In this document: positions 4,647 through 28,349 of the stretch, one piece after another | How the letters are laid out: each line of letters starts with the position of its first letter | Position numbering within the stretch: the first letter of the stretch is position 1 | Assembly (NCBI RefSeq): GCF_006345805.1 | Contig: NW_021834179.1 | Span: 1-64,000, forward strand | Direction: 5' to 3' | Origin: Octopus sinensis | Lineage: Eukaryota | DNA length: 64,000 bases | Translations under genes and position numbers: made by a program | Notes under the pieces: model-generated | The model's database searches: none | The model's input: the letters and a program-made list of their open reading frames with translations, nothing else | What the model was told of the DNA's origin: nothing

Positions 4647-4691
4647 CACACGCTGATGATAGGTCAATACCTTGAAACTCGAGTCCGTGTG
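4647..4691 (+). ncRNA. Minimal type I hammerhead ribozyme (C3-G8 core, GUC site after 4685)
   Basis: cacacg CTGATGA t-aggt-caat-acct-t GAAA ctcgag TC cgtgtg: 6-bp stem I, stem II, palindromic stem III ACTCGAGT. Confidence 0.9.
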
Positions 4692-4901
4692 TATCATAAG
4701 TTGAGGACAGGAAGGACGGCTTCCCTTTGCAAATACTGATAGGACACAGAAAGTGTGTCTATAGCCACCTGGAGGAGGTGTCCTCCTGGGGCTATAAACT
4801 ACAGTAGCATCCACCCTTAGGGGTTAGCCATATTCAAATGGCAAATATACGTCACGATGTGTTTCTGCTACTGTTTATAACTCACTCTGATATTTATCAT
4901 T

Positions 4902-5080
4902 ATATGTATATATATATATATATATATAATATATATATATATATATATATATATATATATATATATATATGTATATATATATATATATACATATATATAT
5001 ATATATATATATATACATACATACATATAGATTTAAAACATATATATATATATATATATATACACATATATATATATATA
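4902..5080. repeat. (TA)n microsatellite
   Basis: Read directly from the sequence. Confidence 0.95.
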
Positions 5081-5419
5081 ATGCTATAAAATTCATAACA
5101 ATTTTTTAAATCTATAAATTATTCAAATCATAGGAGTAAGAAATAATTTAATAACATTTTATCTAATGAATACTTATATTGATTTATGAAGCTAGAATAA
5201 ATATATTTAAATCTACAAAATAACACTGGAAGGAGTTTACCTTTGAAAAACCTAACCTAAAATAATACCAACGTAGAAATCCAAAAACAAATGAGAGAAG
5301 AACTTACTTAAATAGTAAATGCAAAGGATGAAACTGTGATTATCAAACTCTCAATAATCGGTTTATCAAATTAAACAAAGTGAAGCATCCTTAAAAGACC
5401 TGTTTATGTAGAATGTTTA

Positions 5420-5880
5420 AACACATTCATTCCAATGAACACTAAAAATCCTCTTTCCGATTTTGAATTTAACAGCTTTCTTCTAGAAAATAAATCAAAA
5501 ATAATTCTTCAAAACAAAACGAACAGAACCGATTGGCAGTCTTATAGGCCGGAGCCGTCCCTAAAATGTTCCATTCAATAATGAACAAATTATTATGATC
5601 TTTAAGATTCCAGATGAAATTACTAAGACTAATAGAAGAAGCCTTATTTCTAATCCTAAAAGAAAGGTAATGGTTTGAAACCTTGTTTGTTAATATCATT
5701 AGCAGAAGAACCAATATAAATGTAATGATTACCCCCAGAAATGATTTCAGCTTCATAAACCGCTTCTTTACTATTGTATAAAGATGCTGTCTTTAGAAGT
5801 TGTAAATGCATTTTAGAGCGTGGTTGCAAAATATTTGGAGAAGAATTTTGGTGCTTCAAGATCCCCTTGCTTAACTCTGT
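5420..5880 (-). mobile_element. Penelope-like (Naiad-type) GIY-YIG endonuclease remnant; duplicate at about 50740-51200
   Basis: Frameshifted peptides AVYEAEII..YIYIGSSAN, LSNFIWNLKD..IEWNILGTAPAYKTANRFCSFCFEE..LLNSKSE. Confidence 0.8.
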
Positions 5881-5899
5881 TTTCAAATGGAAATGCTTC

Positions 5900-25699: not shown

Positions 25700-26001
25700 A
25701 AAGTATACTAGCCATCTTAATATGGCCAACCACTAGGGGTGGGGGTGTTACTGTAGCTTATTAGCCCCAGGAGATCATCGTCTCCAGCTCGCTTTAGGTC
25801 ATCCCCTCTCGAAAACCTAAGTGATACTCATGGACCGTGATTAGCGTGTGTTGACAAGAGACAATATTCTCGAAACTGCAGTCTATGCGTATCACTTAGG
25901 TTTTCGACAGGGGATGACCTCCCTTTGCGAATATCATAAAGGGCACTGGATTGTGTCTAAAGCCAGCTGGAGACGATGATCTCCTGGGGCTAAAAAGCTA
26001 C
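25700..26001. mobile_element. Fold-back hammerhead-bearing non-coding element (family of 4268-4901)
   Basis: Inverted arms 25753-25797/25957-26001 and 25796-25827/25889-25920. Segment 25920-26001 is homologous to 4721-4802. Confidence 0.78.
25845..25889 (+). ncRNA. Minimal hammerhead, U3-A8 core variant, GUC site after 25883
   Basis: cgtgtg TTGACAA gaga-caatat-tctc GAAA ctgcag TC tatgcg; palindromic stem III ACTGCAGT; stem I has G-U wobbles. Confidence 0.8.
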
Positions 26002-26610
26002 TTTCTATCATTACATGATACAACGCCATATCGTTAGCTGACAAGAGACATCTCTTAGGATTAACGCTCAGATCTTTCTCGGGATCCATGTAAATTCAGT
26101 GAGTGTTGCTTCAGGGAAACGCCCAGTAGATAAGAAGGATTTCTGAGATGCTGTCCTACCTACATATGTCATATACCATGTTTAATAATATAATTGGTGA
26201 CCAAGGCGTATGACCACGCTGTTAATGGTGCTCTATTCGCGATAGCGAGATCGCGGTTTCAATTCCCGTAAAGGGAATTGTATTGCGCTCTTAAGCAAAA
26301 CACCTCATCTCATATTGCTTTGCGTCGTGTAGGAATGGTGAATTTCTGGAAAATGGATTTATTTTCCGGATATTAAACTACAGCGAATCGCGTACATCGA
26401 CAGAAAATACTGACACTGCCTGTAAAGAAACACATAACGGGTTATAACAAATGTGTACTTCGGTCAGTATTCTTATCCGATACAAGCCGCAGAATTAGAC
26501 AATAAACTTTCATGAGGTAATAGAATATCCAGATAAGTGGATAAACCTTTTCTAATTTCTGTAAAAAATTAATACTGAAGTCATATTTGAAACCGGCATT
26601 GTAAATGTAA
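26002..26610 (+). pseudogene. Further CTLD-like decayed segments, copy A
   Basis: LSLHDTT.YR*LTRDIS..NAQIF..VAS..DKKDF, then a paralog of the VGMV..GKWIYFP..YFGQYSY..EVIEY.DKW segment after a SINE remnant (26207-26320). Confidence 0.45.
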
Positions 26611-27534
26611 ATCAATTTTTGCTACTTTCCTGTAAATATTTAAAATTAATATTTATACACACACATATCTACACTGGCGAAATTAAATCTAAGACAGATG
26701 ATATTAGTCCTATTTCTAACAAAATATTTTGTTACAAACACCATACAACTTATTTCTATCTTTTACACCTTATGAAGAATTTATTTCTCTTTCGAATGAT
26801 GCAGACAATAACTATTTTTATACAACTTGAAGAATGCATGAAAGTACTTGTTCAATCAGAGTGGATATTTGATATTCTATCGCTTCATTATGTTATCTTA
26901 TCGTATCATATATTATTATAAGATTGTAAATAAATCATGAAAATCAAAGTTGGAATTTCTTTCAGTAATATATTCTCCTATACACAATCATACACACCTG
27001 TGTATAAGTGCATATATATATATATAATATATATATATATATATATATTATATATATATATATATATATATATATATATATATTATATATATATATATAT
27101 ATATATATATATATATAAGGATATTATTACACACACAAACATATACACTCACACACACATACACACATAAAAATATAAATGGTAAAAAATGCAATAGAAG
27201 ACAATAAAAGATTGGGACAGATAGACGATAGAAAGCGGACAGGAGAAACAAAGATTAGGACAGGCAAAAAAACGACGGGTCATTCGTGGCTTTCTTTCCT
27301 CAGTCAAGTCCCACAAGTCACGACCATCTCGGGCAGTTATACTTGAGATGGTTCGAGCTGGTTGCCCAACTAAAAGTCTCTTTCTCTCTCTCTCTCTCTC
27401 TCTCTCTCTCTTTATATATATATATATATATATATATAATATATATATATATAAAGGCGGTGCTCCAGCATGACCGCAGTCAAATGACTGAAACAAGTAA
27501 AAGAGTAAAAGAGTAAAAGAGTAATATATATATA

Positions 27535-27928
27535 CTAGCAGTATCTCCCGGCGTTGCTCGGGTTTGTAAGGGAAATAATCATATAAGCATTTTTAGAGAT
27601 GTAAAGTATTATAGCCATCTCAATATGGCTAACCACAAAGGGGGAGGGGTGTTACTGTAGCTTTTTACGTTCTGAGATTTAATAATAAATTTTAGAGAGT
27701 TACTTCCCTTATATATGTCAAAAATGGATTAAAAATGGGAAAAATTGATGGTAATTTTTTTTTAAATCGTAGACTCATCGTAGACGTGCGCTAATACCCA
27801 GACGGTCTCGATATGAATCACGACTATAAGATACCCGGTTTTGGTTAAACTGCACCGCAAAATGTGGGAGTAGTTAGGAATCTAAATCGTAGGAGACAGA
27901 CACACAACCTCACTTTTATATATAAAGA
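27535..27928 (-). mobile_element. Non-autonomous Helitron
   Basis: Minus strand a|TCtttatatataaaag ... cccgagcaacgccggg hairpin ... CTAG|t, inserted between A and T. Confidence 0.8.
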
Positions 27929-28091
27929 TTTCCTCTATTTACATAATATTGAGGTCTCTTTCTTTCTTTTGTTATCTTACTGTTTTTACCAATATACATA
28001 TATATATATATATATAAATATATATATAGTTACAGAGATGTACTTGCATAGCAAGTGACTTGATCTGAGATCGTGTGCTGGAACGAAAACA

Positions 28092-28349
28092 GTTGCAGCG
28101 TTGAAGGTGTTTATAAGCCATTTAAGAAACACACAAAAACCGTTAGATTCACTTCAACATTTAAATTTAATTTGTCAAAATATTTTCATCGCTTTGAGAC
28201 CGCGATCTGTTAGCACGATATTTTTGTCAGTGAACAGGTCGCGGTCTCAAAGCGACGAAAATATTTTGGCAAATTAAATTTAAATGTTGAAGTGAATGTA
28301 ACGGTTTTTGTGTGTTTCTTAAATGGCTTACAACACCTTCCACGCTGCA
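28092..28349. repeat. Palindrome with arms of about 118 bp carrying a hammerhead-like motif, between (TA)n tracts
   Basis: ttgcagcg..aaggtgtt..cgcgatctgtt / aacaggtcgcg..aacaccttccacgctgcaa. Confidence 0.9.
28223..28273 (+). ncRNA. Minimal hammerhead candidate with a G3-C8 swapped core and a 1-nt insertion after A9
   Basis: tttgtca GTGAACA g gtcgc-ggtctcaaa-gcgac GAAA atat TT tggcaaa: 7-bp stem I, 5-bp stem II, palindromic AATATT. Confidence 0.68.

Follow-up and report, generated by a model that had tools for sequence, protein, structure and literature searches.

Watson-Crick, wobble and mismatched states of the 3-8 pair in hammerhead motifs of Penelope-type repeats of Octopus sinensis

The described systems closest to the repeats considered here are the 350-390 bp retrozymes without long terminal repeats (non-LTR retrozymes) of the mussel Mytilus galloprovincialis (Cervera & de la Peña 2020, PMC7229834; Li et al., bioRxiv 10.64898/2026.07.22.740005) and the hammerhead ribozymes which reside in the pseudo-LTRs of Penelope-like elements (PLEs; Cervera & De la Peña 2014, PMC4209133). 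The stretch of DNA under study, in the following called the window, comprises positions 1 to 64,000 of contig NW_021834179.1 of Octopus sinensis. It had been predicted from its letters to hold three versions of the tertiary pair between hammerhead core positions 3 and 8 (C3-G8, U3-A8 and G3-C8) in one locus. The sites are likely type I hammerheads belonging to three Penelope-type families, called A, B and C here, which probably cut themselves and in which the 3-8 pair of the core is probably under selection, if loosely, with U-A, C-G, G-C and U·G all occurring in lineages that have multiplied.

In the portions of these papers that were consulted, the mussel retrozymes come closest to family A. 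Like metazoan non-LTR retrozymes it has about 5,000 type I hammerheads per genome, tandem units of 350-365 bp, strong self-pairing and a relation to PLEs. It differs from the mussel elements in that most of its cores are not CUGANGA, U-A being dominant and U·G and C·A lineages being present, and in that many of its insertions are inverted and have a PLE tail. The PLE pseudo-LTR hammerheads of PMC4209133 share with the octopus sites a palindromic or minimal stem III, an extra nucleotide after A9, the pair G10.1-C11.1 and a frequent U at position 17.

Variation of the 3-8 pair has precedents. Natural covariation from C3-G8 to U3-A8 was reported by Perreault et al. 2011 (PMC3088659), where the natural core variants in the parts consulted are few and include no G3-C8, U·G or C·A. 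Families with U3-A8 are given for Schistosoma in PMC4209133 (about 1,300 hits), so natural U3-A8 is already published, Penelope elements included, and supplementary Fig. S3 of that paper contains one uncommented U3·G8 row (Saccoglossus); a term search of its supplement returned no G3-C8 row, and no counts or tree of 3/8 states were found in it. The engineered double mutant C3G/G8C partly restores activity in vitro (PMC9901934, PMC11167929, PMC8495972), also in a PLE hammerhead of Anolis, and G3-C8 occurs as an engineered variant in PMC3884650 as well. The consulted parts of PMC6765202, PMC6155905, PMC11014351, PMC10085705 and the 2026 preprint (10.64898/2026.07.22.740005) added nothing on 3/8. 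Within this partial coverage of the literature, which leaves priority unproven, no published report of natural G3-C8 or of amplified U·G lineages was found, and a large natural G3-C8 family together with repeatedly amplified U·G and C·A intermediates are apparently unreported additions.

All six motifs of the original prediction are present in the window as described: CUGAUGA at 4653 and 17588 and UUGACAA at 25851 on the plus strand, UUGAUAA at 12158 and UUGAAAA at 12040 on the minus strand, and GUGAACA at 28230 (+). Two further C3-G8 sites lie at 4338 (-) and 12454 (-), and every motif named carries a Watson-Crick 3/8 pair. The core N3-UGA-N-N8-A and the GAAA are placed between three stems in the layout of a type I hammerhead, with open stem I and short stem II, which agrees with their identification as hammerhead motifs. 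Stem III is palindromic in most sites and would require a second copy for its formation. A hammerhead descriptor with positions 3 and 8 left free matched eight sites in the first 45.3 kb of the window. Seven of these have a Watson-Crick 3/8 pair and the eighth is a C·C chance site at 23716, compared with a mean of 1.5 and a maximum of 5 matches in 30 block shuffles, where 8 of 45 matches were Watson-Crick at 3/8. Site 12158 escapes the descriptor by a stem I mismatch after three pairs. Minimum free energy folds of the single strand recover hammerhead stems I and II for 4653, 12158, 12040, 25851 and 28230; in the folds of 17588, 12454 and 4338 these stems are absent. An Rfam scan of the window gave no match at the gathering score among the best 150 of 287 rows, the best hammerhead match being HH9 at 12105-12176 with 29.7 bits against a gathering score of 52. 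As the Rfam hammerhead models yielded no row in five further loci either, one of them with a canonical C-G core, the models do not cover this dimeric type of hammerhead.

The notion of one locus has to be replaced by several independent retroelement insertions from three families. Comparison upheld the homology among the elements at 4.6, 12.1 and 25.8 kb, which form family A together with site 4338; sites 17588 and 28230 are unrelated to it. The presence of several hammerheads in one window only reflects the density of repeats. (TA)n and (CA)n repeats abound in the window, as do broken reading frames of retrotransposons.

Genome-wide (2.72 Gb) the states of the pair in family A were counted with a pattern in which the stems are partly fixed, positions 3, 7 and 8 are free, and loop 2 begins with YAA by design. 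This gave 4,879 matches against 7 in a reversed control. U3-A8 accounts for 3,531 of them, U3·G8 for 882 and C3-G8 (with U4) for 365. A hand count of the 78 rows with neither U3 nor G8 found 60 C·A, 12 A·A, 4 G·A and 2 C·U, none being G-C or A-U, and 23 matches were left unclassified at 3/8. About 27 of the C·A rows fall in one subfamily. A Watson-Crick pair is thus found in 3,896 matches and another combination in 983 (20%), so that non-complementary combinations, whose genome-wide frequency the original prediction had proposed to compare with that of complementary ones, are not as common as these. The Watson-Crick reading of the pair is incomplete in that U·G outnumbers C3-G8 with U4 and a C·A subfamily has been amplified as well; the 3-8 pair is looser than had been assumed. 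When transitions were also allowed at positions 4, 5, 6 and 9 the number of matches rose to 5,816, and among the 100 rows listed of these the surplus was mostly U4C with C3-G8 (11 rows, compared with one A6G and one A9G). By subtraction an amplified subfamily with U4C (core CCGAUGA), C3-G8 and about 900 matches can be noted (L248-L250), and C-G in this wide sense is estimated at about 1,200-1,300, the U4C subfamily being partly double-counted. Changes of the catalytic bases behave differently from those at 3/8: matches without G12 (105, of which 100 were listed) and without G5 (99, all listed), each about 2% of the family, are spread over all subfamilies as singletons or local tandem pairs.

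From 265 sampled family A copies, picked by 3/8 class and hence not proportional, 251 had the full downstream sequence and fell into 51 clusters; 47 representatives were kept and six singletons resembling indel or chimeric duplicates of large clusters were dropped. Stem III is self-complementary in all 47 with 18 different sequences, and 44-47 of them form pairs 1-5 of stem I and pairs 2-4 of stem II with several pair types, both stems covarying. At 3/8 a Watson-Crick pair is present in 39 representatives, whereas five have U·G and three have C·A (two of the latter from one locus). An NUH cleavage triplet is present, position 17 being C in 43, U in two, A in one and G in one; in family B the triplet is UUU. 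Apparent G17 subfamilies were rejected as a register shift, the true site being GUC after a longer palindrome, and one of the 47 rows remains G. A tree from which the core was excluded requires U·G to have arisen five times, in each case enforced by well-supported branches, C-G three times and C·A twice; position 8 changes eight times on it and position 3 four times. Five separate lineages have U·G as their fixed state and a single one has C·A, and the amplified C·A lineage is the sister of a C-G lineage nested among U-A lineages. Within subfamilies homogeneity is 93-98% for U·G and 95-99% for U-A and C-G, from which the U·G subfamilies appear to be about as young as the others. The change between C-G and U-A had been put forward as covariation inside one family, and for family A this is confirmed. 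We read the deep lineages as U-A or C-G, with U·G a frequent tolerated state and C·A a rare one. The bases G5 and G12 are retained in every amplified subfamily, which fits the selection for catalysis proposed in the original prediction.

The main rival explanation takes the U·G and C·A subfamilies as dead passengers: only Watson-Crick cores would cut, and the RNAs of the others would be cleaved in trans in mixed dimers by an intact sister RNA or be copied from tandem transcripts that stay uncut. It draws on the palindrome and the near-identical stem I which the C·A and several U·G subfamilies share with a Watson-Crick sister, on 5' ends of copies that ignore the cut site, and on published experiments, in the parts consulted, in which cleavage was dispensable for insertion in vitro (PMC11167929) and single mutants scored low in a mutational scan with only the G-C swap rescued (PMC9901934). 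Passengers of this kind should however also have arisen from G12 and G5 knockouts, which founded no subfamilies and are scattered, and wobble-capable U·G was amplified five times with its 882 matches, as against a single amplification of the C·A mismatch with about 27. We hold the dead-passenger explanation to be rather unlikely, and a 3-8 pair which is needed, if more loosely than laboratory mutants suggest, to be the likely one.

The G3-C8 motif at 28230 belongs to family B. Its hammerhead (28223..28273, +) has the core at 28230-28236, an extra G at 28237, a stem I of 7 bp, stem II GUCGC/GCGAC at 28238-28256, the stem III palindrome AAUAUU at 28260-28265 and a predicted U17 at 28266. It lies in an inverted insertion (28035..28350), a long foldback of -191 kcal/mol, the arms of which end about +143 and about +85 from the predicted cut, corresponding to two Penelope-type 3' ends. 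Around it extends a 2-kb composite repeat (27525..29583) which is near-identical in most of 28 other loci. Besides the family B foldback, a fragment of family A (27601-27667) and a tandem repeat of 107 bp have been taken up into the composite repeat, the ends of which resemble what we take to be the motif of a non-autonomous Helitron. The near-perfect foldback of the window copy within this repeat could suggest a chance resemblance to a hammerhead in a DNA-transposon foldback, be it a miniature inverted-repeat transposable element or Helitron cargo, and the 121 copies without G3 nearly all retain C8, so that there is no covariation inside family B. This view is largely refuted and has very little probability left. 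Genome-wide 4,324 G3-C8 matches were found. Other insertions show 5' truncation and stand singly or are inverted at points that vary, while their 3' ends lie at two constant positions, +87-92 and +143-146, about 53 nt apart (30 loci plus L006 and the window). Family B copies have a variable loop II and a constant stem II. The layout, with the extra nucleotide after A9, G10.1-C11.1, an AU palindrome and U17, matches that of PLE hammerheads in the part of the PMC4209133 supplement consulted.

Most telling against a chance origin is a homologous sister family with 3,448 matches and the core UUGAAAA. In the sequence that follows the ribozyme, identity between the two families amounts to 66% over 138 positions; of 35 pairwise scores 17 lay above all 200 shuffles, none of the five that involved a deleted copy being among them. 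Their cores differ at positions 3 and 8 only, and stem II is compensated, being GUUGC/GCAAC in the sister and GUCGC/GCGAC in family B; stem II of the Drosophila rows in PMC4209133, as far as consulted, is much like that of the sister (GGUUGC/GCAACC). Stem I of the sister family covaries among its three subfamilies. Among 46 copies examined 41 have U3-A8, 4 C·A and 1 U·G, and another U·G subfamily is likely formed by 155 genome-wide Y3-G8 matches, which mostly read UUGAAGA and show enrichment in one loop type. With a homologous U3-A8 sister whose core differs only at 3/8, G3-C8 is a natural compensatory double transversion, as which the compensated variant of the original prediction is now documented; more than 4,000 copies of one family carry it naturally, in contrast to the engineered rescues in the consulted parts of the literature. 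A canonical C3-G8 sister of family B was not found genome-wide, apart from sporadic rows. One recombinant was observed in which a U3-A8 hammerhead of the sister family is joined at the GAAA/stem III region to the downstream part of the G3-C8 family (L276:1357-1620, -). Upstream of the family B hammerhead a (CATA)n tract, a branch-point-like CTAAC, a pyrimidine run and an AG can be seen (L184:1465-1500, L185, L187, L190, L179). The AG lies about 20 nt before stem I, as if at the end of an intron, and most 5' ends are located just downstream; a similar intron end has reportedly been described for Penelope of D. virilis.

Another explanation would have the hammerhead fold preserved for some purpose other than catalysis, such as RNA folding or contact with the Penelope protein as its binding site, with the 3/8 positions drifting by transition bias and the family B motif being a relic. 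Every amplified state of family A can indeed be reached by transitions, co-evolution of 3/8 lacks significance on the tree, stems I and III of family B are weak, and PLE hammerheads cleave poorly in vitro (PMC4209133, parts consulted). Drift is at odds with the company the bases keep, since among the Y3/R8 matches of family A 365 of the 425 with C3 have G8 and 3,531 of the 4,413 with U3 have A8, and with the two transversions which were needed in family B and which restored the pair. Conservation extends moreover to the NUH site and to G12, the general base, and similar mussel retrozymes cleave and circularise (PMC7229834, parts consulted). We consider a non-catalytic role improbable, though less so than the chance foldback.

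A number of findings weigh against self-cutting hammerheads with a selected 3-8 pair and have to be set beside this evidence. Subfamilies without GAAAC, GT or the fixed parts of stem II are invisible to the count patterns, and the variable gaps of these patterns caused some copies to be counted twice. An independent-pairs test of 3/8 co-evolution on the tree, underpowered with 3 and 7 pairs, was not significant. The amplified U4C subfamily indicates that the core is not rigid elsewhere either. In family B 374 copies with G3 (about 8%) have a base other than C8; these, like the copies without G3, look like decay. The stem III dimers of family B are very weak (AAUAUU -0.2 and AAUU +2.2 kcal/mol), and stem I of the sister family has just 3 bp. 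As stem III of family B is weak and consists of AU pairs only, its ribozyme activity is probably low by these calculated energies. The predicted cut shows no enrichment of 5' ends of copies, since 10 out of 292 lie within 4 nt of it compared with 7.3 expected (p 0.2), so that the genome gives no direct footprint of cleavage; an apparent pile-up of 5' ends at the cut had been an artefact of reference ends and was gone with longer references. Finally, in the part of PMC11167929 consulted, mutants of the Anolis PLE with a dead hammerhead ribozyme still inserted in vitro.

The architecture of the copies suggests how such elements may spread. All three families bear the 'tail' signature of Penelope. 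Paired 3' ends constitute the 'tail' of PLEs (PMC8557442), which has been attributed to two internal start sites of the reverse transcriptase (RT; PMC11167929, both sources consulted in part). The marks of PLE mobilisation, namely two 3' ends 30-55 nt apart, 5' truncation and an inverted copy, are all seen in family A, whose copies begin at random points on the 5' side and stop at one of two constant positions on the 3' side, about +170-183 or +216-239 from the predicted cut. Of 90 inverted pairs, 71 combine an arm that stops at the one position with an arm that stops at the other, and all four 3/8 classes behave alike in this respect. Both arms at the same RT start site were observed in 2 of 90 inverted pairs genome-wide; in the consulted part of PMC11167929 no strand difference in the RT start is reported for the Anolis PLE in vitro. 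Natural tandem units measure 353-365 bp (16 distinct), contain one hammerhead each and form arrays of up to about 7 units. As circles 15 of these 16 monomers fold better than 20 doublet shuffles of each (z -3.0 to -9.1), and the remaining chimeric unit has z -0.5. Given the tail and the tandem units, the best reading of family A is a retrozyme of the mussel kind, non-autonomous and mobilised by a Penelope protein. The Penelope partner of families A and B was not found, and the GIY-YIG frame of family C has no match in the loci of families A and B (L001-L160).

The tandem transcripts would form double hammerheads through the palindromic stem III, families A and B likely acting as dimers, would be cut after N17 into units of 353-365 nt and would then form circles, as mussel retrozymes do. 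Reverse transcription, primed in trans by a Penelope RT/GIY-YIG protein, would start from two internal sites with a distance of about 46 nt between them and would read through the ribozyme junction, in keeping with the uniform 5' ends. U·G cores, and rarely C·A cores, would remain active enough to act as intermediate steps on the way between C-G and U-A, and family B would have made the double transversion between U-A and G-C, in either direction; an amplified intermediate between these two states was not identified in family B. Contigs from 4 of 24 runs, which are not on record as RNA, cover parts of a U·G unit at one locus, where ends, strand and level are unreadable. Taken further, it seems to us an even question whether an active-site tertiary pair has here walked between Watson-Crick states, with U3·G8 arising at least five times and remaining active enough for hundreds of insertions, a C·A lineage standing beside a derived C-G lineage, and one family, over 4,000 copies strong, living on a natural G3-C8 that is otherwise seen only as an engineered rescue.

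In the window family A sites are found at 4338, 4653, 12040, 12158 and 25851. A retrozyme-like insertion with head-to-head inversion spans 4306..4901, its forward arm (4487-4901) ending at the tail site +216 from the cut. Its C3-G8 hammerhead on the plus strand (4647..4691) has the core at 4653-4659, the stem III palindrome ACUCGAGU and C17 at 4685; a second C3-G8 hammerhead on the minus strand (4301..4343), with the core from 4338 and C17 at 4306, is truncated shortly downstream. The minus-strand U3-A8 hammerhead at 12115..12172 (core 12158-12152, palindrome ACCGGU, C17 at 12128) is a short piece fused to a second family A subfamily. The latter is a minus-strand copy at 11775..12072 with a U3-A8 hammerhead (core 12040-12034, palindrome ACGCGU, G17 at 12011), its subfamily otherwise having C17 (13 of 14). 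The two hammerheads of different subfamilies, 118 nt apart within 11775-12173 (-), represent a template-switch chimera. An inverted insertion at 25648..26001 carries a U3-A8 hammerhead on the plus strand with the core at 25851-25857, the palindrome ACUGCAGU and C17 at 25883.

Family C is a Penelope-like element (12399..17643) with inverted pseudo-LTR arms at 12399-14645 and 15850-17643 and a broken remnant of RT and endonuclease between them; a Penelope tail is found on one arm. Canonical C3-G8 cores occur at 12454 and 17588 in the pseudo-LTRs. The hammerhead at 17584..17630 (+) has a 4-bp stem III, A17 at 17626 and one stem I mismatch, and that of the inverted arm at 12410..12460 (-), with the core from 12454, has one stem III break. 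Stem I (AGCUUC/GAAGCU) is a perfect 6 bp in 41 of 48 rows; the copies are near-identical, and no covariation was seen in their stems. The family C hammerhead is an ordinary one. Between the arms lies a stop-free GIY-YIG-like endonuclease reading frame (15478..15921, +) that falls into GIY-YIG clusters of the ESM Atlas at high confidence and has no match in Pfam. A weak second GIY-YIG-like remnant, 34% to this frame, is located at 5487-5672 (-).

Several further features of the window were noted. A 45.3-kb tandem duplication relates positions 1-18685 to 45331-64000 at 99.4% identity and runs past the window (copies at contig positions 71143 and 73469); it is either real or an assembly artefact. 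Remnants of reverse transcriptases of the long interspersed nuclear element type (Pfam RVT_1) lie at 1031-2269, 19149-19535 and 20226-21426, and a perfect 217-bp inverted repeat with a 24-nt spacer at 40322-40779. In locus L008 a further hammerhead-like motif, of another repeat (CUGACGA, stem II ending CTC GAAA CGTT), was seen near position 159 (-).

The original prediction had warned that searches fixing CUGANGA would miss such variants, and most copies are in fact missed: of the 4,879 matches in family A descriptors of this kind recover 365, and of the about 7,800 in family B essentially none. Counts of hammerheads in animal genomes may for this reason be far too low. The octopus repeats also provide natural near-isogenic sets with the same stems and C-G, C·A, U-A or U·G at 3/8, as well as U-A versus G-C, whose copy numbers serve as a proxy of fitness. 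They make it testable how much self-cleavage Penelope elements and retrozymes need for their spread, and would also reveal how compensatory change crosses a catalytic tertiary pair.

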